NCBI GenBank assembly: GCA_963809475.1
Contig: CAWEJS010000001.1
Location: forward strand, 80,570 to 144,569
Origin: an uncultured Acidobacteriota bacterium
GTDB taxonomy: Bacteria; Acidobacteriota; Vicinamibacteria; Vicinamibacterales; JAKQTR01
Length of the DNA stretch: 64,000 nucleotides
Reading direction: 5' to 3'
The notes beneath the pieces were generated by a model. That model worked only from the letters and a program-made list of their open reading frames with translations. It was not told where the DNA came from and searched no databases. Below, in pieces: positions 32,854 through 60,450 of the stretch (positions within the stretch are counted from its first letter, which is position 1; every line of letters starts with the position of its first letter). The translations under genes were made by a program, and so were the position numbers.

Positions 32854-32903
32854 TATGCCACGGCGGGCCGCGGTCTCCCGGGCTCCCTGGGCGGCCCGCC
32901 TCG

Positions 32904-33454
32904 CAGGGGCCGCCAGTTGGCGTGCCCGATCTGCAGGAACACACAGTTCTACACGCGCGCGTACCTGCTGAACACACGCATCGCGGGCTTCTTCAACTTC
33001 GACTGGGCCAACAAGGCCGCCCTCACGTTCGTCTGCGAACAGTGCGGCCACATCCTGTGGTTTCGGCCGCATCCGCCTGGCGGGCAACACCGGCGTGGGC
33101 CTGCTGATGGTGGACCAGGAACTCGCGAGCGGCAACATTCCTGGCGCCCCGGCGGAACCGCCGGCGGCGGGCGGCGCCCAGGCGTAGCGGCGGGGCTCAG
33201 TACCCCTTTGCCGCGCCGACGCGCCGCGGGTGATCCTGCGCTTCCCGGCGAATCCGGACGAGATGCTCCTTTCGGGCGTGCTCGTCGGCGGGCAGGCGCT
33301 CTCGGGCCGTGCCCAAGTCGTGGACGCGCCCGTCGGCACGGGCCACGTTGTGATGTTCGCCATCCGGCCGTATTGGCGCTGGCAGACCCAGGACACCTAC
33401 TTCCTGGGGTCCAATGCGATCATGAATTGGAACGATCTGAACGCGGGGAAGTAG
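32904..33454. pseudogene. Mosaic relic of four neighbouring genes (zinc-ribbon, ferritin 3' end, GGT 3' end, M14 3' end)
   Basis: 32904-33063 matches 36237-36396; 33063-33174 matches 36834-36945; 33197-33218 matches 37655-37676; 33213-33454 matches 29875-30116. Confidence 0.9.
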
Positions 33455-33567
33455 ACAACAATTCGCGTCGCCTTGCGCCATTCCGGGCACCGCTCCCTGC
33501 GGGATGGGCGCGGTCGATTCCTCAGCCCGCCCGCTGCCTGTGCGCCTGTGCGCGCTCCGCATGCCAG

Positions 33568-33583
33568 TGGCGCGTTCCTTGCA
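33568..33583 (+). promoter_or_regulatory. Sigma54 (-24/-12) promoter
   Basis: TGGCGCGTTCCTTGCA, GG-N10-GC, about 90 nt upstream of GTG 33672. Confidence 0.6.
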
Positions 33584-33671
33584 CGGTTCGTCATGTGGAG
33601 AGTTGTGCCATACTGCTCGCGTCCCCTCCAGCAGCCGTGGTTCTCCGCACAGCGTGTGGAAGGAGCACCCA

Positions 33672-36044
33672 GTGACTCGTGGTACTCGAACGCGCGGAGC
33701 CATCCTGGCGGCGGGATGCGCGCTTCTCGCCTTCTCTCTCAGCGCGAATGCCCAGACGGCCGTGCCGTCGTTCGACCCGGGCGCCAACGCCGCCATCTAC
33801 GCGATCGCGGTACAGCCAGACGGGAAGATCCTCGTCGGCGGCTCCTTCACGATGCTGGGCGGCGGCGGCTCGGGCTCGACGCCGCGCAACCACATCGGGC
33901 GGCTCAATGCCGACGGGTCCCTGGACACCGAATTCAACCCCGGCGCCGACAGCTACGTCTACGCGATTGCCGTGCAGCCCGACGGGAAGATTCTCGTCGG
34001 CGGCGACTTCTCGGCACTGGGCGACGGCGGCTCCGGCACCGCTCGGCACCGCATCGGACGGCTCAATGCCGACGGGTCGGTTGACGGGAGCTTCGACCCG
34101 GGCGCCAACAGCGCGGTGTACGCCTTCGCGATTCAGCCGGACGGGAAGATCGTGGCCGTTGGCAGCTTCACGATGCTCGGCGGCGGCGGGGCGGGCACGA
34201 CGGTACGCCACCGGATTGGCCGGCTCGACAGCAACGGCTCCCTCGACGTGGACTTCAATCCCGGCGCGAACGCGGTGATCATCTCCACGTGCCTGCAGAG
34301 GGACGGCAAGATCGTCGTGGCCGGCCTGTTCACGATGCTGGGCGGCGGCGGGACAGGGACCACGGCGCGCAGCCACATCGGGCGGATCGACGGCAGCGGC
34401 TCGCTCGACACGGGCTTCGACCCCGGCGCGAACGGCGACGTCGTCGCGACTGCCTTGCAGCCCGACGGAAAGATCCTCGTCGGCGGGACCTTCTCGATGC
34501 TGGGCGGCGGCGGATCGGGCACGACCGAGCGCTACGCAATCGGGCGGATCAACAGCAACGGTTCGTTGGACCCGGACTTCAATCCCGGCGCGAACAGCAC
34601 CGTGCTCGGCCTCGCCGTGCAGGCGGACGGGAAAATCGTCGCGGGCGGGTACTTCTCCATGCTCGGCGGCGGCGAGCGCTCCTATGTCGGGCGCTTGAAC
34701 GCCAACGGTTCGCTCGACGCCGGGTTCGATCCCGGAGCGGACAATTCCACGCCGGCCGTCGCGGTGCGGGGCGACGGGGGCGTCCTGGTCGGCGGCTCCT
34801 TCTCCGACGTCGGCGGCGCGCCCCGCAGCCGGATCGCGCTCCTGTCGAACCCCGACGCTTCGGTCCAGGATCTCAGCGTCGCGGGCGACGGCACGTCGGT
34901 GACGTGGTTGCGCGGCGGCGGCAGCCCCGAGGTGGCGCGCGCGAGCTTCGAGTTCTCGACCGACGGCCTGACGTACACGCCGCTCGGTGCCGGCTCGTAC
35001 GTTTCAGGCGGCTGGCAGATCACCGGGCTCAGCCTGCCGGTGGAGGGGAACCGCTACGTGCGCGCGCGCGGGTTCTATGCCACGGGCCAGTCGGACGGTT
35101 CGGGGTCGATTGTCGAGTCCGTCTGGCGGTCCGTCGCGGCGACCCGCAGCGACTTCGACGGCGACCTGACGTCGGACGTCATGTGGCGGAACATCGCACA
35201 AGGCGACATCTGGCTGTGGTCGATGGCTGGCGGGGCGAAGGCGTCGGAAGCCTACGTGGGGACGGTGGCGGACCTGAATTGGGAGATTCGCGGGCAGGGC
35301 GACCAGGACGGCGACGGGAAGTCGGACTTCCTCTGGCGGAACAAAGCCACCGGGATGATCTACTACTGGCGGATGGACGGCGGCACGCCGGCAGGAGAGT
35401 CGTACGTGTCGACGGTGGACCTCGCCTACGACATCATCGGCACGGGTGACTTCGACGGGGACGGGAAATCGGACATCCTCTGGCGGAACACGGTGGTCGG
35501 GGACGTGTGGGTCTGGCGGATGGACGGGGCGACGGTGCTGGGCGAGGGTTACGTCGACACCGTGGGCCCGGGCTACGTCGTGAAGGGCATCGGCGACCTG
35601 GACGGGGACACCGCGGAGGACGTGGTGTGGTACGGCGCGGCGGGGGACGTCTGGGCGTGGCTGATGGACGGCACGGCCAAGAAGTCGCAGGCTTACGTCG
35701 GCACGGTGGAAGAACTGGCGTTTCAGATCCAGCAGGTGGCGGACTTCGACGGCGACAGGAAGGCCGACCTCCTGTGGTGGAACAACGTGTCCGGCGAGGT
35801 GTGGATCTGGCAGATGGACGGCACGTCGGTGGCGTCGAAGCACTTCGTCGGGGTCGTCCCGGAGACGAACTACCGCGTCATGGCGGCGGGAGACTACAAC
35901 GGCGACACCAGAGCGGACATCCTGTGGCGCCACGCGACGCGCGGCGACCTGTGGGTGTGGCTGATGAACGGCCCCGTGAAGGAGTCCGAGATCTACCTCG
36001 GCATGGTGCCGGACACGAACTACCAGATCGTCTTGGCGAAGTAG
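33672..36044 (+). CDS. Secreted protein with 7 delta-60 repeats and 6 FG-GAP repeats
   Basis: RBS AGGAG; signal peptide; AVQPDGKILVGG-type repeats x7; DFDGDGKSDILWRN-type repeats x6. Confidence 0.88.
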   Translation: MTRGTRTRGAILAAGCALLAFSLSANAQTAVPSFDPGANAAIYAIAVQPDGKILVGGSFTMLGGGGSGSTPRNHIGRLNADGSLDTEFNPGADSYVYAIAVQPDGKILVGGDFSALGDGGSGTARHRIGRLNADGSVDGSFDPGANSAVYAFAIQPDGKIVAVGSFTMLGGGGAGTTVRHRIGRLDSNGSLDVDFNPGANAVIISTCLQRDGKIVVAGLFTMLGGGGTGTTARSHIGRIDGSGSLDTGFDPGANGDVVATALQPDGKILVGGTFSMLGGGGSGTTERYAIGRINSNGSLDPDFNPGANSTVLGLAVQADGKIVAGGYFSMLGGGERSYVGRLNANGSLDAGFDPGADNSTPAVAVRGDGGVLVGGSFSDVGGAPRSRIALLSNPDASVQDLSVAGDGTSVTWLRGGGSPEVARASFEFSTDGLTYTPLGAGSYVSGGWQITGLSLPVEGNRYVRARGFYATGQSDGSGSIVESVWRSVAATRSDFDGDLTSDVMWRNIAQGDIWLWSMAGGAKASEAYVGTVADLNWEIRGQGDQDGDGKSDFLWRNKATGMIYYWRMDGGTPAGESYVSTVDLAYDIIGTGDFDGDGKSDILWRNTVVGDVWVWRMDGATVLGEGYVDTVGPGYVVKGIGDLDGDTAEDVVWYGAAGDVWAWLMDGTAKKSQAYVGTVEELAFQIQQVADFDGDRKADLLWWNNVSGEVWIWQMDGTSVASKHFVGVVPETNYRVMAAGDYNGDTRADILWRHATRGDLWVWLMNGPVKESEIYLGMVPDTNYQIVLAK

Positions 36045-36201: not shown

Positions 36202-36432
36202 ATGAGCAAGGATACCGAGGCTGCGCCGAGATCGGTCAGGGGCCGCCAGTTGGCGTGCCCGATCTGCAGGAACACGCAGTTCTACACGCGCGCCTACCTG
36301 CTGAACACGCGCGTCGCCAGCTTCTTCAATTTCGACTGGGCGAACAAGGCCGCCCTGACGTTCGTCTGCGAACAGTGCGGCCACATCCTGTGGTTTGCCG
36401 CCGACACCGAACACGAGGACCATCATGAATAA
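36202..36432 (+). CDS. Small zinc-ribbon protein
   Basis: CPIC...CEQCG; the duplicated copy differs mostly at synonymous sites, supporting this frame. Confidence 0.85.
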   Translation: MSKDTEAAPRSVRGRQLACPICRNTQFYTRAYLLNTRVASFFNFDWANKAALTFVCEQCGHILWFAADTEHEDHHE

Positions 36433-36955
36433 GGACCTGCTGAAAGGCCTGAACGAGCACCTGACGCTGGAATTCCGCGCGTCGCACGAATATCTCGCCA
36501 TGTCGACGTGGCTCACCGTCAACGACCTGCCCGGCTTCTCGAAGTGGATGCGCCAGCAGTCCGCCGCCGAGCTCACCCATGCGCAGCGCATCATCGACCA
36601 CATCCTCGAGCGCGACGAGCAGCCGATCCTGCCTGCCATCGCCGCGCCACCGAAGGGATGGAAGTCCGTGGAAGCCCTCTGCGCGCACGTCCTGAAGAAC
36701 GAGCAGGAGGTGACGGCGTCGATCCACGACCTCTACGCCGCCGCCGATCAGGCGAAGGACCGCGCGGCCGCCATCATGCTGCAGTGGTTCGTGACGGAGC
36801 AGGTCGAGGAGGAGGCGCAGGCGCGCGCCGTGCTCGGCCGCATCCGCCTGGCGGGCAACACCGGCGTCGGCTTGCTGATGGTGGACCAGGAACTCGCGAG
36901 CGGCAACATCCCCGGCGCGCCGGCGGAACCGCCGACGGCGGGCGGAGCGGCATAA
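36425..36955 (+). CDS. ftnA: Non-haem ferritin
   Basis: LNEH...EF.AS..YLAMS.W, E..HA, EQEVT, LQWFVTEQVEEE. Confidence 0.9.
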   Translation: MNKDLLKGLNEHLTLEFRASHEYLAMSTWLTVNDLPGFSKWMRQQSAAELTHAQRIIDHILERDEQPILPAIAAPPKGWKSVEALCAHVLKNEQEVTASIHDLYAAADQAKDRAAAIMLQWFVTEQVEEEAQARAVLGRIRLAGNTGVGLLMVDQELASGNIPGAPAEPPTAGGAA

Positions 36956-36988: not shown

Positions 36989-37645
36989 ATGCCGCAGGGC
37001 CCTGCCCCTGACGATGCGAGCTTCCGGCACCTGAAGTACCTGATCTTCAGCGACCTGTATCGCTACGATCGAAGGACGGGATCACGGGTGTTCCGCGAGC
37101 ACTTGTTCCACGGTGTTGGGAGCAAGTACATGATTTGGCTGCGGATCGCGAAGTACCTGTCCCGCAAAGGACCGATGTATGCGCTGCCCTTCCTGATTGC
37201 CAAGTTCATGATCAAGAGGCTCGGCGTGAAGTACGGCATTTCGATCCCGTGGTGGATTGAGATCGGGCCGGGATTCTACGTTGGACACCATGGGGGAATC
37301 TGGGTCAGCCCCCTCGCTGTCATTGGCAGGGACTGCAACATCAGCCAAGAAGTGACGATCGGGGTTGGCAATCGCGGCAAGGTCGGAGTCCCGACCATCG
37401 GGGACAGCGTGTACCTTGGACCCGGCGCGAAGCTGTTCGGCCGGATCAAGGTGGGGAACAACGTGGCCATCAGCGCGAACGCCGTCGTGAGCAGGAACGT
37501 CAAACCCAACTCGGTCGTCATGGCTGCGCCTGCCGAGATTGTGGCAACGGACGATCCTTCGTTCCCGATCTACGGCTCTCGGGGCTATGTCGACAACACA
37601 GACTACGACGCGATACTCCAGGAAGAGCTTCGCCAGAAGATGTAG
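36989..37645 (+). CDS. Serine O-acetyltransferase-like hexapeptide acetyltransferase (EPS type)
   Basis: IGPGFYVGHHGGI, PTIGDSVYLGPGAKLFG, ANAVV; more AT-rich than its neighbours. Confidence 0.85.
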   Translation: MPQGPAPDDASFRHLKYLIFSDLYRYDRRTGSRVFREHLFHGVGSKYMIWLRIAKYLSRKGPMYALPFLIAKFMIKRLGVKYGISIPWWIEIGPGFYVGHHGGIWVSPLAVIGRDCNISQEVTIGVGNRGKVGVPTIGDSVYLGPGAKLFGRIKVGNNVAISANAVVSRNVKPNSVVMAAPAEIVATDDPSFPIYGSRGYVDNTDYDAILQEELRQKM

Positions 37646-37654
37646 CGGCCGCCG

Positions 37655-39331
37655 TCAGTATCCCTTCGCCGCCCCGGCGCCGCGGGGATCGGCGCCGCCG
37701 CGGTAGGTCATCGGGTTGCCGTCCGAGTCGTATGCGATCGTCAGTCCGTGTGCGTTGCCGAGCGCGCGGACCACGCGGACGTTGTGACCCATGGCCGCCA
37801 GGGCCGCGCGCACGTCCGCGGGGATCCCTTCCTCAACGGCGAGCACGTCCGGTTCGACGAAGCTGACGCGCGGCGCCGCGATCGCCTCGTCTATCGGCAT
37901 CCCGAAGTCAATGAGGTTCATCACGATCTGCGGCACAGTCTGGCCGATGGTGTGCCCGCCAGGGGTGCCCACGGCGGCCCACAGCCGGTTGTTGCGCAGG
38001 ATGATCGTGGGGCAGTCGCCGGACAGCTTCCGGCGCCCCGGGAACGCGTCCATCGGGTTGCCCTTCGGCTCGAACGTGCTGTACGCGAGCGAGTCGTTCA
38101 GCCAGATGCCGGTGCCCTCGGGCATGACGCGGCTGCCGAACGCGTTGCCGAGCGTCTGTGTGGCCGACACCACGTTGCCCCACTTGTCGGCCACGACGAA
38201 GTGGGTGGTGTGGCTGTCCTTCCCGCCGGACCATTCCGGCGGCTCGAATGGCTTCGCGCGCTTCGGGTCGATGCGCTCGATCTCCTTGTGCCAGTACGGT
38301 TCGGAGAGCAGTTCGCCGAGCGGCGGCCGGGCCACGTCGGGATCGCCGGCATAGCGGAGGCGCAGCCAGTAACCGTGCTTCGTGACCTCGGCGAACCGGT
38401 GCAGGTACGCCACGGTGTTGTGGCCGAGCACCCGGGAGTTGCTGCGGCTCATCATGCCGAGGCGGACGAGCGAATCGAACGCGTTCGCCGGCGGCGCCGC
38501 CGTGAAGACTGCGTAGCCGCGGTACTCGATGGAGATCGGGTCAATCCACTCGGCGCGGTCCTTCTTCAGATCTGCCAGGGACAGGAACCCGCCGGCCTGG
38601 CGCATGGCGCGGTCCACCGCCGCGCCGATCTCCCCCTCGTAGAACGCCGCCGGTCCGCGCTGCACCACGGTGCGGAACGACCGCGCGAGATCCTGCTGCA
38701 CGAGCCGTTCGCCTGTCGTGAGCGGCTTGCCGCCCCTTCCGTAGATGCGCCTGGCGTGGTCGGGAAAGGCGCCGTAGGCCGACGTGATGACGCCGGCGCC
38801 CGCCGCGTCCAGGACGAACCCCTCTTCCGCCAGCTTGATGGCCGGCTCGAACACCCGCGACCATGTCAGTCGGCCGTACTTCTTCCCCAGCGCCTCCCAG
38901 GCGTGCAGGTTGCCGGGCGTCGACACCGCCTTGGCGCCGGAGCGGTTCTGCAGGTAGTCCGGCGTGGGCGGGCGGAAGACGTCCGCGTCGACCAGGGTGG
39001 GGATGCGCCCGGCAGCGTTGAGGTAGCGCACCTGCTCCTGCTTCGCGTCCCAGATGAGGATCGTGCCGTAGCCGCCCATCCCGGACATGGCCGGCTCCAC
39101 CACATTCAGGGCCGCGGCGATGGCGACGGCGGCATCGAAGGCGTTTCCGCCGTTCTTGAGGATCTCGAGGCCCGCGTCGGTGGCAAGGGGATGGGCCGTG
39201 CTGACCATGCCGGACATGCGGCCGCCCTGGCGCGCGGGCGACGCCCCGAGCGGTGGGAGCTGCACCTGCGACGACAAGATCACCGGCAGGGCGATGGCGG
39301 CGGCGAGAACGGGAATAAGTAACGGGCGCAC
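37655..39331 (-). CDS. ggt: Gamma-glutamyltransferase
   Basis: GGNAFDAAVA, EPAMSGMGG, HTTHFVVAD (nucleophile Thr), GTPGG, GGADPR; GTG start after GGAG. Confidence 0.93.
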   Translation of the reverse strand: MRPLLIPVLAAAIALPVILSSQVQLPPLGASPARQGGRMSGMVSTAHPLATDAGLEILKNGGNAFDAAVAIAAALNVVEPAMSGMGGYGTILIWDAKQEQVRYLNAAGRIPTLVDADVFRPPTPDYLQNRSGAKAVSTPGNLHAWEALGKKYGRLTWSRVFEPAIKLAEEGFVLDAAGAGVITSAYGAFPDHARRIYGRGGKPLTTGERLVQQDLARSFRTVVQRGPAAFYEGEIGAAVDRAMRQAGGFLSLADLKKDRAEWIDPISIEYRGYAVFTAAPPANAFDSLVRLGMMSRSNSRVLGHNTVAYLHRFAEVTKHGYWLRLRYAGDPDVARPPLGELLSEPYWHKEIERIDPKRAKPFEPPEWSGGKDSHTTHFVVADKWGNVVSATQTLGNAFGSRVMPEGTGIWLNDSLAYSTFEPKGNPMDAFPGRRKLSGDCPTIILRNNRLWAAVGTPGGHTIGQTVPQIVMNLIDFGMPIDEAIAAPRVSFVEPDVLAVEEGIPADVRAALAAMGHNVRVVRALGNAHGLTIAYDSDGNPMTYRGGADPRGAGAAKGY

Positions 39332-39377
39332 GAGGATCTCCATTGCCGGCGTGAATTGCTCTTCAGGCGCGTCCACA

Positions 39378-40394
39378 CTACCCGCGCCGCGGGCGAGTAT
39401 CCAACCGCTTCGCCGCCTGAATCACGTACCGCTGGGCACGAAGCCATGCGGAGCCAGACGGAATCGGGGCCGGGTCAGCACGGGCCACGACCACGCCCGC
39501 CTTGAGCCGATCCCCGAGCCATCTTACCGTCCTGACGTTGAATCGGCCCCGCTCCTGATTCAAGAAGTCCAACACCTTCCGAAGGCGCCTGATGTTGATT
39601 CGGTTCGGCCGTCCGCTCGGGATGCGCTCATCGTCCACGACGAAGAACTCGGTACCGTGTGTGATGATGGTGGCGCACGCAGCGCCCGCCGCCTCCAGAC
39701 GCTCGAGTGCATTCCGCATTTCGGCAAACGAGACAGCCGTGAGCTGCAGGGGGCGATAGCCGGCGCCCTGGCGGACGCAGCTGATCGGCAGCTCCCAGAT
39801 GCCGGGCGCGGCCTCGTAAAGATCGATCCTGGGCCGATCAGGGCGAATCAGACAGCCGCGATGGAGATACGCGAGGTTGAGACTGCTGCTCAGAATCAGG
39901 CCCACCCGGGAGAGCGCTTCCCACGTCGAGTTCGCGGCGCCAAAACTCCCGGCGCGAAATGCGCACAGTCGATCTCGAGGCACGCCCGCCTTCGTCAGAA
40001 GACCCACGCCGTCCTCGAGCAACCGCACCTGATCGTCCAGCGGATACGCGCCGATATTGTCCTCGAGGCACTGGCCGCCGATCAGCCGCCACGCTGGCCG
40101 GCGAAAGCGTGGATGCAGGTGCAGCTGAATGTCCTGACCAGAGTCCTGAAGCTGGGAGACGACTGTTGTCAGTCCTTCAATACCGAAATGCTCACTGCAC
40201 AGCGGTTCGAGGAAGAACGTCGCCTTCAGGTTCGCACGGGTGAGTTCCCGGACCAGCAAATCGGTCCCAAGGCCGTCGGCCTGGTTGGCGAACCGGCCCC
40301 GCATCATGATGTCGTAGCCGACAGGCGCACGAACACCGAAGGGCAGCCGCCGCTCCACCGCGCATTCGATATCGACCGTGAGGAAGACGTTCAT
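39378..40394 (-). CDS. Polysaccharide deacetylase family protein
   Basis: FLTVDIE, ATFF.EP, DIQLHLHP, AFRAGSF, WELPIS. Confidence 0.8.
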   Translation of the reverse strand: MNVFLTVDIECAVERRLPFGVRAPVGYDIMMRGRFANQADGLGTDLLVRELTRANLKATFFLEPLCSEHFGIEGLTTVVSQLQDSGQDIQLHLHPRFRRPAWRLIGGQCLEDNIGAYPLDDQVRLLEDGVGLLTKAGVPRDRLCAFRAGSFGAANSTWEALSRVGLILSSSLNLAYLHRGCLIRPDRPRIDLYEAAPGIWELPISCVRQGAGYRPLQLTAVSFAEMRNALERLEAAGAACATIITHGTEFFVVDDERIPSGRPNRINIRRLRKVLDFLNQERGRFNVRTVRWLGDRLKAGVVVARADPAPIPSGSAWLRAQRYVIQAAKRLDTRPRRG

Positions 40395-40782
40395 CTGAAC
40401 CTGGTCGGGCCGACCCCTACCTTTCGTCTGGCTTCGGTGTCTTCGCGGTACTCGGCGGAAGCGCCGGCGGCTCCTTCGTGCAGCCGCCCACAAACGAGAC
40501 GACGGCGAGGGCGAGGGGGATTAGTACGGCAACTGGTCTGCGCAAGGGTGAACTCCGCCGGGGGCCGGTGGACTGGCTAAGGATAGCACTGAGCTGCACG
40601 AGTGTGATGACTCCTGGCTGCACAGGATCACGCGTAGAGAGTACCCTAATCCGTCGGATACTCCCGCCCGCAATTCCAGATCGGTCTGGCTTGGACAGCC
40701 AGGGAGCGCTACGCGGAAGGCCCGGCCCAGCCGACATGCGTGGTAACATCACACGACCTGCTGTCGCGGCGGAGAGCGCAGT

Positions 40783-41514
40783 ATGCCAGGATACTACCGC
40801 AGGATCCTTCGTTCTGAGCGCCCCTTGGTCCGCTGGGCCAAGCGCCTCTATCGACGCGGACAGGCGCTGACCCTGCCCGCACCGCGAGTGCTCACTCTGC
40901 CGCTCCTCTGGTTCTTCTTGGCAGTACGCTCCGTATACTACGCCTTGGTTCGCTTGTTGGTATGCGAACCGATCTTCAAAGCGTACTGCAAACAGCACGG
41001 GCGTTCGGTGAGGACCGGAACATATATTCACTGGATTACCGGATCAGGAGACCTCATCGTCGGAGATGATGTTCGGGTAGATGGCAAGTGCTCTATCACG
41101 TTCGCCTCTCGGTTCAGTCCGCATCCGACACTGAAGATCGGTTCCAGGACCGGAATCGGGCATGGGTGTGTCTTCACGGTCGGGAAATCGATCAGTATTG
41201 GCGACGATTGCCGTGTGGCGGGTTTTGTCTGGATCTTCGATTCGGGCGGCCACCCGGCCGATCCTGCGAGCCGTCTCGCGGGTCGCCCGCCCCGCGATGC
41301 TGATGTGCTCCCAGTGGTTGTGTGCAACAACGTCTGGATCGGAAGCCGCGCCATTGTCCACCCCGGGGTGACGATCGGAGAGGGCAGCGTGGTGTCCGCC
41401 GGAGCGGTCGTCATGTCCGACGTTCCGCCCTTCAGTGTGGTGGCCGGCAACCCCGCCCGAAGAATCGCGAGTCTTGAGCCCGACAGCCGGCCGGACTCGT
41501 CTACCGCACCGTAG
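40783..41514 (+). CDS. Hexapeptide-repeat acyltransferase (maltose O-acetyltransferase-like)
   Basis: DSGGHP, NVWIGSRAIVHPGVTIGEGSVVSAGAVV, VAGNPAR. Confidence 0.88.
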   Translation: MPGYYRRILRSERPLVRWAKRLYRRGQALTLPAPRVLTLPLLWFFLAVRSVYYALVRLLVCEPIFKAYCKQHGRSVRTGTYIHWITGSGDLIVGDDVRVDGKCSITFASRFSPHPTLKIGSRTGIGHGCVFTVGKSISIGDDCRVAGFVWIFDSGGHPADPASRLAGRPPRDADVLPVVVCNNVWIGSRAIVHPGVTIGEGSVVSAGAVVMSDVPPFSVVAGNPARRIASLEPDSRPDSSTAP

Positions 41515-41566
41515 ACTGTAGACGGACGGTGCGGCGTCCAGAGAGATCGGAGCGAGGTCGAATCAG

Positions 41567-41806
41567 ATGGATGTGAAGCAAATGCAGGAGGTCGTTGACA
41601 TCGTGTGCAACATCGGCGGCCTCGCGGGGCTTGTGCCGGACGAGGATTTCTACGCCGCCGGGTTCTCGTCGATTCGCGCGCTTCAGTTGCTCATGGAGCT
41701 CGAGACACGGTTCGACGTCAATATCCCCGACGACGAGTTCATTAAGGCGAGGACGGCGTCCGAACTTGCCAGGATGCTGGATCGTGTCCGGGAGGCCGGA
41801 AGATGA
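41567..41806 (+). CDS. Carrier protein (aa:CP ligase-associated type)
   Basis: 79 aa; DFYAAGFSSIRALQLLMELETRFDVNIPD, a GxSS variant of the phosphopantetheine motif. Confidence 0.88.
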   Translation: MDVKQMQEVVDIVCNIGGLAGLVPDEDFYAAGFSSIRALQLLMELETRFDVNIPDDEFIKARTASELARMLDRVREAGR

Positions 41807-42987
41807 CCGAACTGAAGATCGCGTTGCGGACGCAGGCTGGCGAGATGGCCCAGGAGGAGATCCGCAAACAAGTGCCCTTCCTTTCCCCCTGCATCCGGAG
41901 CGTCTCCTTTCTCGACTCCGGAAGCACGATTGTGTGCGGCCTCTCGACAGAGCCGGGTCGGAACCTGGAGGCGGAGATCCTCGATCTCGCGTCGCGTGTC
42001 CAGCGAGGCCTCAGGAGCCTTCAGCGGCGGGTGCTTTACCAAAGTGCATCGATCGCGTCCGCCGCGTTCCCGCCGCTTGGAGACCTCCCGGGCGTGCGAT
42101 ACCTCGGCCAGGGACAGGTTGCGCTGTACGGACCCGCGCTCGGGCTCTTCCGGTACTTCGACCGGCGTTTCCGCGAGTTTGGCGAGTTCTGGACGACGCA
42201 GGACATTCTTACGCCGACGCTCATACCGGCCGAAGTGCTCGGGCGTTGCGACTATTTTCGCTCGTTTCCTCACAACGTGACTTTTGCCTGCCATCTCGAA
42301 GGCGAAGCCGAGGTGATTGAAGGGTTCCGGAAGCGGCACGCGACGGCCAACGCGCTTGATGAGAAGTCGATCCACGACATGTCGACGCCGGAAGCCTGCC
42401 TCTCACCGGCGGTCTGCTACCACATCTACCATTTGTACGAGGGACAGACGCTCACCGAGCCGCTGCATGTTCATGGCATCTGCGGGAAGTGTTTCCGGTA
42501 CGAATCGGCCAATATCAGCGACCTGCGTCGCTTGTGGGACTTCACGATGAGAGAGATCGTGTTCCTGGGGTCCCGGGAGACCGTTCTCCCGCAGCGCGAC
42601 ACTGCGATCGAGAGGTTCTCGCGCTTCCTTGAGGAGCATCGCCTGGAGGGAGAGATCAGGACAGCCAGCGATCCCTTCTTCGTGGCGCCGGACGCGGTAG
42701 CCAAGACGTACTTCCAGTTGAGCTCCGAGACGAAGTACGAGGTTTCCCTGCTCGTGCCTGACGGCGAGCGACTGGCAGTAGGGTCCTTCAACTATCACAC
42801 CGACTTCTTTGGCAGGGCGTTCAACGTCTCCGCCCAGGACCAGGGTCCGATGCACAGCGTGTGCGTGGCGTTCGGGTTGGAGCGCTGGGTCTATGCCTTT
42901 GTTTCGCAGCACGGACTGCGGATCCATCAATGGCCGGACTCGATTCGAAACGCACCCGAACTGGCCGGGCTCACATGGCAGACGTAG
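41803..42987 (+). CDS. Amino acid:[carrier protein] ligase (atypical SerRS-like class II aaRS homologue)
   Basis: YFRSFP, SPAVCYH, CFRYE, RLWDFTMREIV, ASDPFF, KYE, SFNYH, HSVCVAFGLERW; ATGA overlap with the carrier protein gene. Confidence 0.88.
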   Translation: MTELKIALRTQAGEMAQEEIRKQVPFLSPCIRSVSFLDSGSTIVCGLSTEPGRNLEAEILDLASRVQRGLRSLQRRVLYQSASIASAAFPPLGDLPGVRYLGQGQVALYGPALGLFRYFDRRFREFGEFWTTQDILTPTLIPAEVLGRCDYFRSFPHNVTFACHLEGEAEVIEGFRKRHATANALDEKSIHDMSTPEACLSPAVCYHIYHLYEGQTLTEPLHVHGICGKCFRYESANISDLRRLWDFTMREIVFLGSRETVLPQRDTAIERFSRFLEEHRLEGEIRTASDPFFVAPDAVAKTYFQLSSETKYEVSLLVPDGERLAVGSFNYHTDFFGRAFNVSAQDQGPMHSVCVAFGLERWVYAFVSQHGLRIHQWPDSIRNAPELAGLTWQT

Positions 42988-43931
42988 AGATTGCCGCTAT
43001 TGATCCGCTGTCGGCTGTGGATTCCGCTGCCGCCGTCCTTCACGAGGCATGGCCTCGACCGTGCTTTCACTACACCCCGGCTTACCTGGCCTGGCAGTTC
43101 CAGTACCCGAGTCCACTTCGGTCCTGTGCCTTTGGTGCGTTCGACGGGTTTCGGTTGGTCGGTTTCGTCGGTGCCTGCGCCAGGCGGGTCCAGACGAGAG
43201 GCATCGCACAGGACATCTATGCCTATTCATTCGCGGGTGTCTTGCCGTCGTTCCAAGGAAGAGGAATTGCCTCCCGTCTCTACGAGGCGCTGTTCCGCGT
43301 CATCGAGCCAACGGGCGCGGACATCGTGGCATTCGCCGAAACCGGCTCCCGGGCTGAGTACGTGTTCGTGAAGATCGCGCAGCGGCTACGGAGTGTCGTG
43401 CGCGCGCATTCACCTCTGCGGGGATACGCGACTGTCGTGGATCCTGTCGATCTGGCGACCGTAGGCACGGTCGGGACGTACTCGGACTTGGAGAGACTCG
43501 TGCTGGAATCGACACAGCAAGGTGTCGGATGGAACAGCCCATCGCGCGCCCAACTGGACCACCACGCGAACGATCCCCGGGGAGCGGAGTGGTTGACCAC
43601 CGAAGATGATGGCGGCATGGCTGGCGCCATCGCGACTCTATTTGAGGTCGCCAACCTGACAGATATTGAGCGGGTTCCCGTGCTCGACAGTGTCTTTCTG
43701 CCGTCGGGCAGGGCAAAGCACCTCAGGAACCTCGCCATTTCAGCCGGTTCCAGGTGGTCACGCAGGTCGTCCACGGTTGTGATGCTGCCGAATCCCGGGA
43801 CGATAGCCCCTTCCGTGTTGCGGGAGGCCGGCTTTCGCGGAACCAAGGCCTCTTTCACGCCGTACGTCATCGGAAACGACCCGAGTTCGCCTCTGATGAG
43901 CGCGGACGCGACGAACCTGGAGATTGTCTGA
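42975..43931 (+). CDS. GNAT family N-acyltransferase
   Basis: YLAWQF, GVLPSFQGRGIASRLY (motif A); overlaps the ligase 3' end. Confidence 0.8.
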   Translation: MADVEIAAIDPLSAVDSAAAVLHEAWPRPCFHYTPAYLAWQFQYPSPLRSCAFGAFDGFRLVGFVGACARRVQTRGIAQDIYAYSFAGVLPSFQGRGIASRLYEALFRVIEPTGADIVAFAETGSRAEYVFVKIAQRLRSVVRAHSPLRGYATVVDPVDLATVGTVGTYSDLERLVLESTQQGVGWNSPSRAQLDHHANDPRGAEWLTTEDDGGMAGAIATLFEVANLTDIERVPVLDSVFLPSGRAKHLRNLAISAGSRWSRRSSTVVMLPNPGTIAPSVLREAGFRGTKASFTPYVIGNDPSSPLMSADATNLEIV

Positions 43932-43977
43932 GCGTCTGCCCCGAAAAGAAGTTGGGTGATATCAGGAAGAAGTTGAA

Positions 43978-44005
43978 GCCCGGGGGGTAGAGTCACCCCC
44001 CGGGC
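43978..44005. terminator. GC-rich hairpin between convergent genes
   Basis: GCCCGGGGGGT / ACCCCCCGGGC 11-bp stem with 6-nt loop; TTCAACTTCTT follows on the minus strand. Confidence 0.65.
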
Positions 44006-44032: not shown

Positions 44033-47000
44033 CTACTGTGTTGCACCCGCAGTCGCGACGAAGACCGCGCCGCAGGTGCGCGGCCCATCGAGCGCGAGGA
44101 AGAACCCCGGCGATGTGGCGGCGGAGCAGTGGCCCGTCCACCCCGAGAAGACGTACCCCTTGTCTGGCGTCGCCTCGATCCCGAGCCGGATGGGCCCAGG
44201 CATGGTCACCGAGCAGCTATTGCCCTTGCCGCAGTTGACGCCGGCGCTCCTGATCGTTCCGCCCGAAGGGCGGGTCACGGTCAGCGTATAGGGTGCCCCC
44301 ATCGGCAGGGAGCCGCCGCTGGGCGTGGTTGCTGGCGGTGTAGTGGTCGAGCCGGAAGACCCGCCGCCGCCCGTCGCCACAAACGTCGCCGCGCAGGTGC
44401 GAGGGCCTTCGAGCGCCAGCCAGTAGTTGGCGCTCGTTCCCGAGCAGTGGCCCGACCAACCCGTGAACGTGTATCCCGCATCGGGTGTCGCTTGCATCCC
44501 GAGCGTCATCGGCGCCGGCATCTGCACCTCGCAGGCCCCCGTGTTCGTGCCGCAGTTGACGCCCGCGCTCCTGACCGTCCCCCCCGTCCCGCGGGTGATG
44601 GTGAGCCTGTAGGGCGCTCCGAAGGTGAGCGTCCCCGATGGCGGCGTCGACGAACCACCGGACGAACCGCCTGGTGTCGGTGTCGGCGTGCCCGCCGTCG
44701 CGGTGAACGTCGCGCCGCACACCTTGGCACCGTTGAGCCGAAGCATGTAGCTGGCGCTCGTCCCCGAGCAGTCACCGGACCAGCCCGAGAAGGTGTAGCC
44801 GCTGTCGGCCACAGCCTGGATTCCGAGAGACATGCTCGATGGCATCGTCACCTGGCACAGCGCAGAGGACGTGCCGCAGTTGATGCCGGCGCCTTGGACG
44901 ACGCCGCCGGTCGGCCGCGTCACGGTCAACTGATAGACGACCGCCGCGTTCACCGTAAGGCTCCTCGTGGCCGAGGCGCTGTTGTACAGCGACGTGTTCG
45001 TCGGCGTGAAGGTTACCGTAAGCGTCTGGGTCCCGGCAGCAAGGACAGTGCCCGCCGCCGGCGAGTAGACGAACGTTCCGGCCACGCTGGCTGTCGCGTT
45101 CAACTGGGCGCTGCCGAGGGCCGTGCCGGCGTTGATCGCCGCCGGTGTCGCCCACGTGATCGATGGCGTCGTGCGGGTCACGGGGTTCACCGTCAGGGTC
45201 GTGCTCGCCGAGGCGCTGGTGTACAGCGAGGTGTTCGTCGGCGTGAAGGTCACCGTGAGCGTCCGGGTTCCGGCAGCAAGGACAGTGCCCGCCGCCGGCG
45301 AGTAGACGAACGTTCCGGCTACGCTGGCTGTCGCATTCAACTGGGCGCTGCCGAGGGCGGTGCCGGCGGTGATCGCCGCGGGCGTCGCCCAGGTGATCGT
45401 TGGCGTCGTGCGGGTCACGGGGTTCACGGTCAGGGTCGTGCTCGCCGAGGCGCTGGTGTACAGCGAGGTGTTCGTCGGCGTGAAGGTCACCGTGAGCGTC
45501 CGGGTTCCGGCAGCAAGGACAGTGCCCGCCGCCGGCGAGTAGACGAACGTTCCGGCCACGCTGGCTGTCGCGTTCAACTGGGCGCTGCCGAGGGCGGTGC
45601 CGGCGGTGATCGCCGCGGGCGTCGCCCAGGTGATCGTTGGCGTGGTTGGCGTTGGCGATACCGCCGGGCGCCACCCCAGTTGGACCACCTCGAAATCGCT
45701 GCCCTTCAACTGGCCGAACGCCGGGTTGAGCTCGTCGTTGTTCCAGCGCCCGTCCATCGTGCCGCTGATGAAGAGGTCGCTGCCGTTGTCGGCCAGGATC
45801 AGCCCGTACGTTTTCATCGCCTGGAAAATCCGCCGCAGCGGGGGCGCGAATCCAGACAGGTCGACCGACGCCTTGAGGCGGAGGCGCGTGCCCATCGGGG
45901 GCGCTCCAGAGGTGTTGCCGGCACGATGGGACGCCGGCCACACGTAGCCGTTCGTTGCACGGCTCGTGAACCTGATGGCGTGCCGGATCTCTCCCGTCCC
46001 GTAGGCCTCGTCATAGCGAACGAGGCCCGGCAGTACCGCCAGACCGGCGGCGTCCACGGACGTCCAGCTTTCCGGCCGTCGCGCGTTGCTGGACAGGTCG
46101 AAGATCGCCCCTGCTCCGGCTTCCCAGCGGTTGGCCGCCGCATTCCACACGGTCCCGCCGAGCTCGTAGAGCAGCCCCCGGTCCCGATCGACAATCGACA
46201 TGTGCCGGTCACCATCGGTGCCGCCGCCCGCAACGCCCCCCTCGATGTAGTTGGGCGATGTGCGCGCTTCGTCCGGCACCGGATAACCGGGAAGATCGCC
46301 CGGGGCGCCCGCATCGCTCTCGTCGCCATACAGATAGAACGTGACGGGGACGCGGGGCTGGCTCGCGCCCACAGTCACGTAGGGGATGCCGTACGGCGGC
46401 GGGCCGAAGTCGGGATGAAGCCCGCGGGTCGTCCCGAGAAACGTAATGAACGATGAAGACTGCGGGTCCACTGGCGCGTGCGAGACGTCCACGTTCCACC
46501 AATTGTCGGCGGGGAACAACTGGCGGCCCTGGAGATCTTCCAGCAGGCGCACGGGCCCGGCGTCCGCGGTGACGACGAGTCCCACTGAGGCTGTCGCAGC
46601 GGGCAACGGGCTTGCCGCCGGAACCATCGGTCCCTGAACCGGTGCCGAGTCCGCGCTCGCGGAACCGGCCGAGCCCGCCGGTGTGAAGACCGCCGTGAGC
46701 GTCTGAAAACCGGCTGGAAGCACCGTGCCGGCCGGGGGCGAGTAGACGAAGGTCCCCGGCACGTTGGCGGTGGCACAGAGCTGCGCCGGCCCTAGCGGGG
46801 TGCCTTGAACGATTGGCGCCGGCGTCGGCCAGGTGATGGTGGGCGACACCCCCGGCGTGACCGGCGGATTCGACCCGCCAGTTCCGCCGCCTGCCGCCGG
46901 CGTCCCGAGGGCGACGACTTCCGAGAGGCCGCTCTCACCCTTCTGGGAATCGACCGTGGTCAATGCAAAAGCGTACGAGCCGGCCGGGTCGAGGCCGGTC

Positions 47001-48979
47001 ACCGTGGCGGTGTACGTCGCATTGCCGCCCACCGTCCCGATGAAGGTGCGCTGCCCTCCATCGACCCTGTAGATGTTGAAGCCCGTAATGGTTGGCAGGG
47101 CAAGGTCGGCCGGCCGCGCCCAGTTGAACGTGACACTGCCGGCACCCGGAGTCGCCACGAGCCCGAGCGGGGGAACGGCATTGCCTAGATAGCCCCAGAT
47201 GTAGTTCGTCAGGGTCTGACCGTCAGCGCAGAACCCTCTCTTGCCATCCTCGCCCGCCGTGGCGTAGAAGCCGAACACCAGGAATTTCCCACTCGCAGGT
47301 GTCGGAGCGGTGTTGGCGCTCAATCTCCAGACCGTTGGACTGATCCGCGTCCACGTATACGCCTGTCCAGGCCCGACCGAGTACGTCGCTTCAGGTCTCG
47401 CGCCAGCGTAGAAATCGCCCAGTGATCGATAGATCGAACAGACGGCGTCTGCGCTCCTGAAATCCGCGATGTACGTATCGAAGTCTCGAGTGGTTCCGTT
47501 GGTTTCCCACGGCTCCAGGGTGTGGACGGGCGCGGGCGTATAGGTCCGGAAGTCCGCCCGAATCAACGCCTCGTTCGGAAACGGCCAGAGGGGAATCTCG
47601 GTGAGTTGGTCATATCCCGTCTCGCCCCACAACGTCCCCGAGACGCCGTACTGATAGACGACGTTGGCTCCAATGTCTCCTCCGTCAGACGCTGCGCCTT
47701 TCAGTGGTGAATCCGGCTCCACACGGCAGATATACTTGACCCCCGGATCGACGTAGGTATCGTGTGTGCCGGGAGTGGGCTGGGCAATCCCATACACACC
47801 CGTTCCGTAATCATCGTTGTTGGCAAAGAAGTTGTTGTGGTCTGACGTGAACCAGGACGCGACGCCGAAGGACTTCGCGTCGTAGACGAGTGAGTTCCGC
47901 AGGTCGAAATTGGGTTGCGGAGTGACGAAACCGGCTTGTACGGCAGTTCCCCATCCACGCTCCCCGTCGCGAGAAGTGCCCCAGATATTCCCAAACGTCG
48001 AGTGACTGATATCGGACGACCTGGGGCGAAGGAACTCCACATAATCGCCATCGCCAATGTAGCCACCGAGCGAGTCCCAGATGACATTGTCCCTGACTGT
48101 ACGCGCCCCGTTCAGCCCGAAATCCTTGATGCCCGCGCTGCCTTCGATGTTCAGTTGGATGTTGCCGAGTATCGGACCACTATTGTCGAGGGCGTGCGCA
48201 TTGGGAAGGAAGATGCCACCCTCCAGGTATCCATTCGTGAGGTCAGCCCGCCCCGAGTCAATGGCGATGTTGTTTTCCAGGATCACGCTGCGCGTGTCGT
48301 ACAGAGTGAAACATGCACTCTGTCGGCCAAAGTCCGGAGCTGGCGTGTGGTAGTCGTGCCGGGCGACAGAGCGTCGAATGACGATACGCTCGGACTGATA
48401 GACGATGAATTTGTACCGTCCCGTTCCCCACGCCCAGCATTCCTCGACCAATACGTCATTGGCGCCGTTGGTCACCGTGAGCACCGCGCTGTTGCCGGTA
48501 CGTGGGGCATCGTAGAACGCACAGCGAATGATCTTGATGTGATGGGTCGTCGTGGGCGGGCCGTCGACATTGATCGGTTGGGTTCCTACCACCATGCCGG
48601 GATAGGTGGTCGCACTGTCTGGGTTTCCCCTGAACCGGATCCCCTCGATCTGTACGTAGCTGACGCCGCCCAGACTCAGTGCCGCGGAATCCTCACTCAA
48701 TGTAGAGGCATCGAATGTGACCCTTCCGACGTGTTCGGCCTTGACAACGGTGTATGCGCCAGCCGTCCCGCTCGGGGGATTGTAGAGACGCTCGGCATAG
48801 GTGCCGTCCCGGATGATCAGAGTGTCGCCACCCCTCATTGCAGCCACGGCCTGCTGGAACGTCTTGCAGGCTTCGTTCGGGCCCATGTAGACCACGGCGG
48901 CGGCCACGGGTTTCGCACCGAGAACCAGCAGAAGCAGTAGCCCTACTCCGAGGGATTCGATGGCTCTGATTCGGGACAT
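44033..48979 (-). CDS. Large secreted multidomain protein: right-handed beta-helix, FN3, Ig/MBG-like repeats, uncharacterised central domain, three InlB B-repeat-like domains
   Basis: Signal peptide; GGDTLIIRDGTY; FN3-like ITGFNIYR...VTGL; TITWATPAAI repeats; GYTFSGWSGDC-type repeats. Confidence 0.85.
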   Translation of the reverse strand: MSRIRAIESLGVGLLLLLVLGAKPVAAAVVYMGPNEACKTFQQAVAAMRGGDTLIIRDGTYAERLYNPPSGTAGAYTVVKAEHVGRVTFDASTLSEDSAALSLGGVSYVQIEGIRFRGNPDSATTYPGMVVGTQPINVDGPPTTTHHIKIIRCAFYDAPRTGNSAVLTVTNGANDVLVEECWAWGTGRYKFIVYQSERIVIRRSVARHDYHTPAPDFGRQSACFTLYDTRSVILENNIAIDSGRADLTNGYLEGGIFLPNAHALDNSGPILGNIQLNIEGSAGIKDFGLNGARTVRDNVIWDSLGGYIGDGDYVEFLRPRSSDISHSTFGNIWGTSRDGERGWGTAVQAGFVTPQPNFDLRNSLVYDAKSFGVASWFTSDHNNFFANNDDYGTGVYGIAQPTPGTHDTYVDPGVKYICRVEPDSPLKGAASDGGDIGANVVYQYGVSGTLWGETGYDQLTEIPLWPFPNEALIRADFRTYTPAPVHTLEPWETNGTTRDFDTYIADFRSADAVCSIYRSLGDFYAGARPEATYSVGPGQAYTWTRISPTVWRLSANTAPTPASGKFLVFGFYATAGEDGKRGFCADGQTLTNYIWGYLGNAVPPLGLVATPGAGSVTFNWARPADLALPTITGFNIYRVDGGQRTFIGTVGGNATYTATVTGLDPAGSYAFALTTVDSQKGESGLSEVVALGTPAAGGGTGGSNPPVTPGVSPTITWPTPAPIVQGTPLGPAQLCATANVPGTFVYSPPAGTVLPAGFQTLTAVFTPAGSAGSASADSAPVQGPMVPAASPLPAATASVGLVVTADAGPVRLLEDLQGRQLFPADNWWNVDVSHAPVDPQSSSFITFLGTTRGLHPDFGPPPYGIPYVTVGASQPRVPVTFYLYGDESDAGAPGDLPGYPVPDEARTSPNYIEGGVAGGGTDGDRHMSIVDRDRGLLYELGGTVWNAAANRWEAGAGAIFDLSSNARRPESWTSVDAAGLAVLPGLVRYDEAYGTGEIRHAIRFTSRATNGYVWPASHRAGNTSGAPPMGTRLRLKASVDLSGFAPPLRRIFQAMKTYGLILADNGSDLFISGTMDGRWNNDELNPAFGQLKGSDFEVVQLGWRPAVSPTPTTPTITWATPAAITAGTALGSAQLNATASVAGTFVYSPAAGTVLAAGTRTLTVTFTPTNTSLYTSASASTTLTVNPVTRTTPTITWATPAAITAGTALGSAQLNATASVAGTFVYSPAAGTVLAAGTRTLTVTFTPTNTSLYTSASASTTLTVNPVTRTTPSITWATPAAINAGTALGSAQLNATASVAGTFVYSPAAGTVLAAGTQTLTVTFTPTNTSLYNSASATRSLTVNAAVVYQLTVTRPTGGVVQGAGINCGTSSALCQVTMPSSMSLGIQAVADSGYTFSGWSGDCSGTSASYMLRLNGAKVCGATFTATAGTPTPTPGGSSGGSSTPPSGTLTFGAPYRLTITRGTGGTVRSAGVNCGTNTGACEVQMPAPMTLGMQATPDAGYTFTGWSGHCSGTSANYWLALEGPRTCAATFVATGGGGSSGSTTTPPATTPSGGSLPMGAPYTLTVTRPSGGTIRSAGVNCGKGNSCSVTMPGPIRLGIEATPDKGYVFSGWTGHCSAATSPGFFLALDGPRTCGAVFVATAGATQ
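44947..45643 (-). repeat. Three near-identical 237-bp intragenic tandem repeats (79 aa)
   Basis: Units begin at about 45643, 45406 and 45169 on the minus strand; diverged fourth copy near 46680-46845. Confidence 0.9.
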
Positions 48980-49026
48980 CTGTGCGTCTCCAGGTGGCAT
49001 TCGACAGGTCAGCCTAGCTACCTGAG

Positions 49027-50614: not shown

Positions 50615-50744
50615 GGCGGGAATCGTACACCGCCCGGGTCACATATGATTGCAGGATATCCGCGCGAATGGGGGCCATTCCGCCGCACAGGCTCTGCAGG
50701 GCCGGGTGGTTGGTACCGAAACCTAGACTGGGGCTTCACTGGTG

Positions 50745-52789: not shown

Positions 52790-52793
52790 CGCC

Positions 52794-54002: not shown

Positions 54003-54047
54003 CCCGATACTGAACAGGGCCCCCGGGAACGAACTGGAGTAGGGAAC

Positions 54048-55268: not shown

Positions 55269-55343
55269 GGACCGTCCCCCGTTCGAGGTCATCGCCGTGT
55301 CATCACGTCCTCCGTCCGGGACTCCCGGCAGACTGAAGAGAAG

Positions 55344-55904: not shown

Positions 55905-55988
55905 ACCGGGGTTGCCGTCGCGCCGGCCTTCCTCTGGGACGCAGTCACCGATCGGAAACGTGCTGACCGACGCCGATTGGCAGCATGA

Positions 55989-58090: not shown

Positions 58091-58315
58091 GCCCGCTCCT
58101 TTCGCCTGTGTGCCGACACGGGGATTCCGAGATGTTCCTGCCAACAACCAAGACAGCCCGGGGCACTAGTTGCGAGATCTCCCACGATGGCCGTTCTCCG
58201 ATTCCTCTGCAGCGAGGATGACACGGACCGTCTCCCGTGCCGCGCGGTCGTGCAGCCGAGACGGTGTTCCGTCGTTGTGCGCTCCCGGCGGTGCGTCAGC
58301 TCTCACCATCACGTC

Positions 58316-60400: not shown

Positions 60401-60450
60401 TTGGGGCTCCTGGTCTCCCTGGCGGCAGTCCTGGACTCAGCCATGGCATG

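Follow-up and report, generated by a model that had tools for sequence, protein, structure and literature searches.

Enzymes that load amino acids onto carrier proteins (CPs) and resemble aminoacyl-tRNA synthetases (aaRSs) have been known from structures and in vitro activity since 2010; these amino acid:[carrier protein] ligases, namely Bll0957 and Bll6282 of Bradyrhizobium and Atu2573 of Agrobacterium, were reportedly described by Mocibob et al. in 2010 and 2013. A similar division of labor, in which an ATP-dependent ligase loads a CP and transferases then modify a cell-envelope glycopolymer, is found in the Dlt system (DltA/DltC/DltB/DltD), responsible for the D-alanylation of teichoic acids, and in AlmEFG, which adds glycine to the lipid A of Vibrio cholerae. 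The portion of a 2022 review that treats the amino acid:CP ligases lists them solely by their in vitro CP-loading activity (PMC9437257). Here we analyzed a 64,000-nucleotide stretch of DNA from an uncultured Acidobacteriota bacterium (contig CAWEJS010000001.1, positions 80,570 to 144,569 of the forward strand), hereafter called the window, in which an earlier note, made from the sequence alone, had pointed to a ligase homologue, a CP and a GNAT as a candidate system for the aminoacylation of a glycan. Our analysis confirmed the cassette as it had been observed and partly supported its interpretation: we propose that four genes of the window form one self-contained, portable thiotemplate module, which, whatever the order of its transferases, probably puts an amino-acid-derived group on a glycan.

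The four genes are co-oriented and occupy positions 40783-43931 of the forward strand, as follows:

40783-41514, + strand: left-handed beta-helix (LbH, hexapeptide-repeat) acyltransferase, 243 aa; Pfam Hexapep 4.7e-10
41567-41806, + strand: stand-alone CP, 79 aa; PP-binding 4.3e-13
41803-42987, + strand: class II aaRS-like amino acid:[carrier protein] ligase homologue, 394 aa; tRNA-synt_2b 1.5e-8
42975-43931, + strand: tandem-repeat GNAT, N-myristoyltransferase (NMT)-like, 318 aa; Acetyltransf_1 8e-8

As had been described, the last three genes overlap, the CP and ligase genes by 4 nt and the ligase and GNAT genes by 13 nt, and a gap of 52 nt separates the LbH gene from that of the CP. For the GNAT, a start at ATG 42975 was preferred over GTG 42861 upon comparison with 17 homologues.

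That the four proteins share a single carrier-bound intermediate is argued most strongly by their natural fusions. A search of longer proteins returned nine matches, and five proteins of 1080-1179 aa (P0121, P0122, P0125, P0126 and P0127) carry LbH, CP, ligase and GNAT in a single polypeptide, collinear with the window genes. These four-domain fusions share 54-57% identity with the window LbH (residues 1-231), 51-53% with the ligase and 28-31% with the GNAT, the last up to the very C-terminus. One of them, P0125, belongs to Chondromyces crocatus (11.4-Mb genome), while P0123 and P0124 are ligase-GNAT fusions, one of which comes from Chondromyces apiculatus. In a quick maximum-likelihood tree, the ligases of the fusions nest within the clade of the window ligase. 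The fused form was not found among 201 genomes of the class to which genome G041 belongs, seven of which matched through the ligase part only (35-44% identity). A fusion of another kind was seen in a Paenibacillus sp. protein of a far clade (P0129, 738 aa), where a ligase of 32% identity is joined to a BtrH_N domain; BtrH, of butirosin biosynthesis, transfers an aminoacyl group from its carrier to the amine of an aminoglycoside.

The ligase family is widespread. Among 8000 candidates scored in a protein search, 1631 ligase relatives were detected at E <= 1e-5, the best of them mostly ~390 aa long, 57-62% identical to the window ligase and from Acidobacteriota, Planctomycetota and Armatimonadota. 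Scanning one genome per species yielded 74 ligase loci, 33 of which make up the close clade; in the tree, the window ligase belongs to a group of 39 rows that has an SH-aLRT support of 100 and a long stem and intermixes members of at least eight phyla; an Acetobacteraceae copy, for instance, is paired with one from Acidobacteriaceae. We counted companion genes in the 33 close loci with hidden Markov models (HMMs) built from the module's own proteins, whose training members match by construction. The CP lies directly upstream of the ligase in 32 loci, the remaining one being cut off. The specific LbH family was strongly matched in 23 of the 33, with another LbH adjacent in three more, and the tandem GNAT reached its full score in 19 and a weaker score in seven, all of the latter from Gemmatimonadota. 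Two loci (L002 and L004) hold a divergent GNAT member on the opposite strand, though tblastn had scored both as lacking a GNAT. Together, the conserved neighborhood in the close loci and the five complete fusions bear out the view of the four genes as one system. In the Bryobacterales locus L015 (11055-12074), the position directly after the ligase, where the relatives L010, L012 and L014 have the GNAT, is taken by an ArnA/Fmt-like formyltransferase, whose best solved relatives are the sugar N-formyltransferases ArnA (1e-22) and GDP-perosamine formyltransferase (3e-18), with lesser matches to Met-tRNA formyltransferase (1.9e-13) and the LgrA F domain (1.4e-5). We considered this gene as support for N-capping and dropped it, as it does not discriminate between the models.

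We then compared the ligase with its described relatives. Its best NCBIfam match is the amino acid--ACP ligase family NF005479 (147.8 bits, 3.4e-43), below the cut-off of 357, followed by the archaeal-type seryl-tRNA synthetase (SerRS) NF002120 (130.6 bits, 6.3e-38). By phmmer against the PDB it is about equally distant from the SerRS of M. kandleri (3w3s, 1.8e-25) and from Bll0957 (3mey, 1.4e-24). The motifs SPAVCYH, MREIV and SVCVAFGLER, to which a Cys/Glu/Cys zinc site had been ascribed, are present at residues 201, 249 and 352, and their C205, E251 and C354, which we take to be Zn ligands, align with the Zn-ligand positions of Bll0957 and of archaeal SerRS. Across 64 full-length members of the family, no variation occurs at C205, E251, R232 or E234, the last two of which belong to motif 2; C354, and R361 of motif 3, are kept in at least 90%. 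Using an AlphaFold model (pLDDT 93.6), VIA-align superposed residues 90-388 on Bll0957 (3mey) over 291 residues with a Z of 32.0 and an rmsd of 2.2 Å, and methanogen-type SerRS structures with a Z of 29-30 (3w3s, 30.2), the latter alignments starting at residue 36 or 55. Taken with the translationally coupled CP gene upstream, the NF005479 match, the conserved residues and this structural likeness sustain the description of the enzyme as a SerRS-like, Zn-site-bearing ligase with a CP of its own.

The N-terminal extension of roughly 90 aa that had been noticed is real, because the Bll0957 core aligns only from model residue 90 on. In the model, residues 2-80 form a beta-alpha-beta-beta-alpha-beta domain, which lies in the least conserved part of the protein (the N-terminal ~90 aa) and of which residues 36-90 align with the end of the N-terminal tRNA-binding domain of SerRS. 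The ligases of the family are ~390 aa long throughout. Since the window ligase scores 148 bits against a cut-off of 357, we place it in a separate ~390-aa subfamily, and this is a sister of the characterized amino acid:CP ligases, outside their equivalog group. The window enzyme thus shares with the Bll0957 type a class II core derived from methanogen-type SerRS, the Cys/Glu/Cys Zn residues, the motif 2 and 3 arginines and an adjacent CP gene, but differs in its length and extra N-terminal domain, in its partners, an LbH and a tandem GNAT, and in occurring fused with all of them. No acyl-CoA dehydrogenase was seen among the genes scanned at 27-64 kb, nor an NRPS (nonribosomal peptide synthetase); to this extent the reported lack of both holds.

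The module also differs from Dlt and Alm. Its ligase is tRNA-synt_2b/SerRS-like, unlike DltA and AlmE, which are of the ANL type; no AMP-binding match occurs among the cassette proteins in Pfam or NCBIfam. Its transferases are a soluble LbH and GNAT rather than an MBOAT (DltB) or LPLAT (AlmG) protein, and the Pfam matches of the cassette proteins are confined to the Hexapep, PP-binding, tRNA-synt_2b and GNAT families. An aaRS-derived ligase and soluble transferases place the module outside the Dlt/AlmEFG group, and because the transferases are soluble, the transfer should be cytoplasmic and precede export.

The CP bears the AGFSS motif that had been read from it, at residues 31-35, with Ser35 as the predicted phosphopantetheine site; G32, S35, L42, E46 and D55 are invariant in 29 sequences, and the protein scores 36.8 bits against NF005480, below the cut-off of 72. 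Its partner GNAT was modeled with a pLDDT of 92.7 as two GNAT domains in one chain, the top Foldseek matches of which are NMTs (E 1e-13, TM 0.70). With VIA-align, it superposes on yeast NMT with a Z of 21.6 over 291 residues, up to both C-termini, on other tandem GNATs with a Z of 19-21, on Eis with 16.9, on glucosamine N-acetyltransferase with 16.0, and on FemA/FemX and the aminoacyl-tRNA-dependent Sbb17 with about 11. At the sequence level, a search against the PDB gave nothing useful (best E 0.018, a proteasome chaperone), and the Pfam NMT family is not matched by the window GNAT and weakly so by its fused relative P0123 (E 6e-4). W26, P29, W40, Q41, R70, H196, D200, P201, R202, G286, R288 and E316 are invariant. 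The window protein ends in ...NLEIV; all 18 aligned members end in E-[IV]-x, and in all seven fusions the GNAT comes last and keeps this acidic-hydrophobic ending. Both NMT and Eis use their C-terminal carboxylate as the catalytic base toward the amine acceptor. The GNAT resembles these enzymes in its tandem fold, in alignments that reach both C-termini and in a conserved, fixed C-terminus, while it differs in a sequence identity of 10-13% and in a predicted substrate that would be a carrier-bound amino acid instead of a protein N-terminus.

A controlled complex prediction supports binding between the CP and the GNAT, in line with the partner role implied by the earlier note. Three runs scored 0.67, 0.69 and 0.65 (median 0.67), the best of three controls scored 0.00, and a score of 0.67 is attained by 58 of 80 solved complexes and two of 110 mismatched pairs, a calibration that is approximate here, since custom alignments were used. 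The runs share at least 97% of their contacts, with a partner pLDDT of at least 87. On the CP side, the predicted interface is the classic surface centered on Ser35 and helix II (G32, 34-40 including Ser35, 42-43, D55 and I59); on the GNAT side it comprises P29, 152-154, 225-234, 268-270 and 288-291, and the pairs of lowest error include the invariant R288 of the GNAT facing the invariant D55 of the CP. The acyl-CoA P-loop of the GNAT (QGRGIA, residues 94-99, in the N-terminal GNAT domain) lies outside the predicted contacts, the CP being predicted to dock on the acceptor side and the C-terminal domain. The canonical form of this loop, Q/R-x-x-G-x-G/A, is found in 13 of 18 members. According to a study of acyl-CP-dependent GNATs, SbzI (of altemicidin biosynthesis) and FeeM have this canonical loop replaced, and grafting it into SbzI lowers activity to 2-5% (PMC11685415). 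The window GNAT would thus resemble SbzI and FeeM in recognizing a small CP around the phosphopantetheine serine and helix II, here through CP residues 32-43, 55 and 59, while differing from them in that it keeps the canonical loop and is predicted to dock the CP elsewhere.

As for the LbH, its best NCBIfam match is maltose O-acetyltransferase (82.8 bits, under the cut-off), and its named relatives belong to the maltose/galactoside O-acetyltransferase branch, all beneath the family cut-offs; the closest solved structures, 6ag8 and 1ocx, are both maltose O-acetyltransferases. R49, R57, E62, P63, C69, H127 and H157 are invariant among 21 homologues, and the protein has a conserved N-terminal extension of ~90 aa. 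Its most hydrophobic 19-mer has a Kyte-Doolittle value of 1.67 and includes two invariant arginines. We regard the LbH as a candidate for the enzyme that hands the carrier-bound group to its acceptor.

The link to glycans was examined by running Pfam on crude gene calls (rule GC3 > GC1 >= GC2, which recovers the Pfam-supported genes of the window and misses some genes, such as that of the GFO protein) within 8 kb of the ligase in the 33 close loci. As belonging to glycan pathways we counted GT2, GT4, Wzx, Wzy, initiating transferase, Wzz-type, UDP-GlcNAc 2-epimerase, CapD-type dehydratase, UDP-sugar dehydrogenase, DegT, Acyl_transf_3 and PF01522. At least one of these was present in 27 of the 33 loci, often in the form of a Wzx, a Wzy, an initiating transferase or a nucleotide-sugar enzyme directly beside the cassette; in five of the 27, the sole such gene is single and distant. 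In the window itself, the glycan genes make up the following region:

50742-63485: polysaccharide island (context), by Pfam matches

The island contains a GT2 and three GT4 glycosyltransferases, a second LbH, an epimerase/dehydratase, a GFO/IDH/MocA oxidoreductase, a DUF2298-like membrane protein, a Wzy-like polymerase and a Wzx flippase. The cassette had been placed at the edge of this island; the island is there, but 'edge' is a loose term, because 6.8 kb and two genes, encoding proteins of 1655 and 458 aa, intervene.

From these observations we arrived at a tentative scheme, the one we prefer among those considered, which we hold possible without being able to call it probable, in which the ligase loads the CP, the GNAT N-acylates the loaded amino acid and the LbH delivers the product to a sugar. 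By homology to the Bll0957-type ligases, we infer that the SerRS-like ligase would use ATP and its Zn site to activate a small amino acid and transfer it, as a thioester, to the phosphopantetheine of its dedicated CP. The GNAT would then bind the loaded CP and use an acyl-CoA held by its P-loop, probably acetyl-CoA, to N-acylate the carrier-bound alpha-amine, much as NMT does with a glycine at a protein N-terminus, the base presumably being the conserved C-terminal carboxylate. Finally, the LbH may take the (N-acyl)aminoacyl group off the CP and attach it to a sugar hydroxyl or amine in the cytoplasm, at the stage of a nucleotide-sugar or of a lipid-linked repeat unit, which in this genome would be that of the neighboring Wzx/Wzy-dependent polysaccharide. 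Whether the four parts amount to a 'mini-NRPS', at times a single polypeptide of 1160 aa, with the ligase loading, the NMT-like GNAT capping the carrier-bound amine and the LbH using an acyl-carrier donor to esterify or amidate the polysaccharide, is something that we find rather doubtful.

Several observations weigh against parts of this scheme. All 32 ligase relatives tested against NF005479 score 127-183 bits, under the cut-off of 357, and because these scores are so far below it, CP loading is extrapolated from a sister family. Could the ligase, then, still be a tRNA synthetase, i.e., a SerRS paralogue serving, for example, in resistance or tRNA-dependent transfer, next to an unrelated CP? 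Archaeal-type SerRS models and structures do match it nearly as well as Bll0957 does, and residues 36-90 can be aligned with the last part of the tRNA-binding domain of SerRS; yet ~90 residues are left ahead of the core compared with ~210 in SerRS, the CP gene overlaps the start of the ligase and is present in 32 of the 33 loci, and in five proteins CP and ligase are adjoining domains of one reading frame, making this explanation very improbable. More serious is the order of events put forward in the earlier note, in which the GNAT moves the aminoacyl group from the CP to the amine of an amino sugar; the LbH would then only acetylate, using acetyl-CoA, either the amino acid or a sugar hydroxyl. 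In its favor, CP-GNAT binding passes the complex test, the Bryobacterales loci L010 and L012 have CP, ligase and GNAT with no LbH within 10 kb, as would fit a GNAT acting as the sole transferase, and the LbH falls in the acetyl-CoA-dependent O-acetyltransferase branch, its nearest solved relatives all being users of acetyl-CoA and none of an acyl carrier protein. FemA/FemX and Sbb17, fold-related tandem GNATs (Z about 11), take tRNA-bound amino acids, and the far-clade ligase P0129 is fused to the domain of BtrH, itself an aminoacyl transferase acting on an amine. Both acyltransferases of the cassette come from acetyl-CoA-using families. The canonical P-loop is missing from five of the 18 GNATs, and our assignment of donor and acceptor sides to the docked complex rests on the contact list and on the known topology of GNATs. 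CP-dependent GNATs do exist in SbzI and FeeM, but these lack the canonical loop, which 13 of the 18 members here keep and which in SbzI does not go together with the use of a CP (PMC11685415). The predicted contacts of the CP bypass the P-loop, and the LbH-CP-ligase trio is conserved no less than the GNAT (23 strong LbH matches against 19 full GNAT scores in the 33 loci). Because the GNAT keeps its acyl-CoA P-loop and is predicted to dock the CP away from it, we assign N-capping to the GNAT and the transfer to the LbH, reversing the roles that had been given to the two enzymes: the LbH is more likely the transferase than the N-acylator, and an aminoacyl-transferring GNAT is unlikely.

It could also be that the product is not a glycan at all but an N-acylated amino acid, a lipid with a decorated head group or a starter unit, and that the polysaccharide neighborhood is incidental. 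Such a reading would suit the portability of the module across at least eight phyla, the 6.8 kb that separate cassette and island in the window, and the six loci in which no glycan gene was seen within 8 kb (L002, L006, L007, L017, L022 and L029, with L006 and L029 being short contigs). One of these, from a Singulisphaera metagenome-assembled genome (L017:11234-19675), has a CP and a ligase followed directly by a 2813-aa polyketide synthase (AMP-binding, KS, DH, PP, AT), with no LbH or GNAT. Against this reading stand the 27 close loci with glycan genes within 8 kb, often right beside the cassette, and a comparison with the background of the genome from which the window comes: with custom GT2 and GT4 HMMs, 24 of the 33 close loci had at least one match and 18 at least two, compared with 10.1% and 3.9%, respectively, of 17.2-kb segments of that genome, a contrast that is large, though overstated, because the HMMs were trained partly on the same loci and the loci are interrelated. 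By this rough measure of about 10% in the background, the proposed enrichment of homologous cassettes near glycan genes holds, and we consider a non-glycan product quite unlikely.

In the window's own lineage, the cassette looks horizontally acquired, because it was not found in 21 genomes of the same family, eight of them of the same genus, and because its base composition is low in GC: 0.62 at 40000-44000 compared with 0.65-0.72 elsewhere in the window, and 0.69-0.80 at third codon positions (GC3) of the cassette genes compared with 0.85-0.93 in core genes of 1-39 kb. Across the other families of the order, only a relative of 36% identity was found, in one of 19. Between 39000 and 44300, a search for sigma-70 promoters found none, and that for intrinsic terminators found two terminator-like sites, with no excess over shuffled sequences.

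Ahead of the cassette, and divergent from it, lies a gene that had been called a polysaccharide deacetylase:

39378-40397, - strand: divergent deacetylase-like protein, 339 aa from a probable start at ATG 40397; the open reading frame extends to TTG 40493

The divergent gene is indeed there, and its likeness to deacetylases comes only from language-model features and a homologue's weak match. Over 39378-40493 it has no Pfam or NCBIfam match, PF01522 being blank even at E 10, and a search of its protein against PDB sequences gave nothing useful. Its Atlas language-model feature score to 'polysaccharide deacetylase' clusters, 12-31% of whose members carry PF01522, is 0.97, and the homologue in L042 matches PF01522 weakly (E 0.023). 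The gene is a neighbor outside the conserved module: since it accompanies the ligase in only three of the 74 loci (L029, L042 and L057), the idea that the aminoacyl group goes to amines exposed by this deacetylase has no comparative support.

Downstream, the reverse strand at 44033-49000 encodes the secreted-looking protein of 1655 aa, which has an N-terminal right-handed beta-helix/chondroitinase-B-like region, fn3, three near-identical Ig-like repeats and three InlB B-repeat (Flg_new_2) domains; the 458-aa protein beyond it is of no known kind. A domain of ~290 aa in the former (residues ~822-1109) belongs to no Pfam family and has Atlas matches solely to 'hypothetical' clusters of ~320 aa, and homologues of this domain adjoin the ligase cassette in L004, L024, L025, L027, L045 and L057. 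Just upstream of the cassette, at 36989-39376, are an EpsC/CysE-like serine O-acetyltransferase homologue, which scores 87 bits against a cut-off of 150, and a full gamma-glutamyltransferase, which exceeds its cut-off (TIGR00066, 381.7 bits), preceded by a ferritin gene at 36395-36955 and, at 30124-36044, by genes for a 1090-aa homologue of the TMEM260-like protein O-mannosyltransferases (- strand) and an 846-aa DUF5122 beta-propeller/FG-GAP protein (+ strand).

A full-text literature search, most subscription papers lying outside it, returned no pathway or product for the amino acid:CP ligases and no description of the module. One candidate, the Lipocone preprint (10.1101/2025.01.14.632903), was set aside as not relevant, its accessible part treating lipid aminoacylation by tRNA-dependent enzymes only. 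What this analysis adds consists of the four-domain fusions, the recognition of the GNAT as NMT-like, the CP-GNAT complex prediction with its controls, the count of 27 glycan-linked loci among the 33, and the reassigned roles of the transferases.

The module thus offers a concrete, testable pathway, whose full part list is defined by natural fusions, one of them carried by the cultured Chondromyces crocatus, in a family of more than 1600 detected members from soil phyla. If our scheme is true, the aaRS-derived amino acid:CP ligases would gain a first role in the cell, the two transferases would each show an activity new to its family, with the carrier-bound amine joining the substrates of NMT-like GNATs, and the whole would be a cytoplasmic, tRNA-free counterpart of Dlt and Alm. 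Should the product be an (N-acyl)aminoacyl group on an exopolysaccharide or O-antigen, the module would explain how some glycans obtain amino-acid substituents without tRNA or an NRPS.

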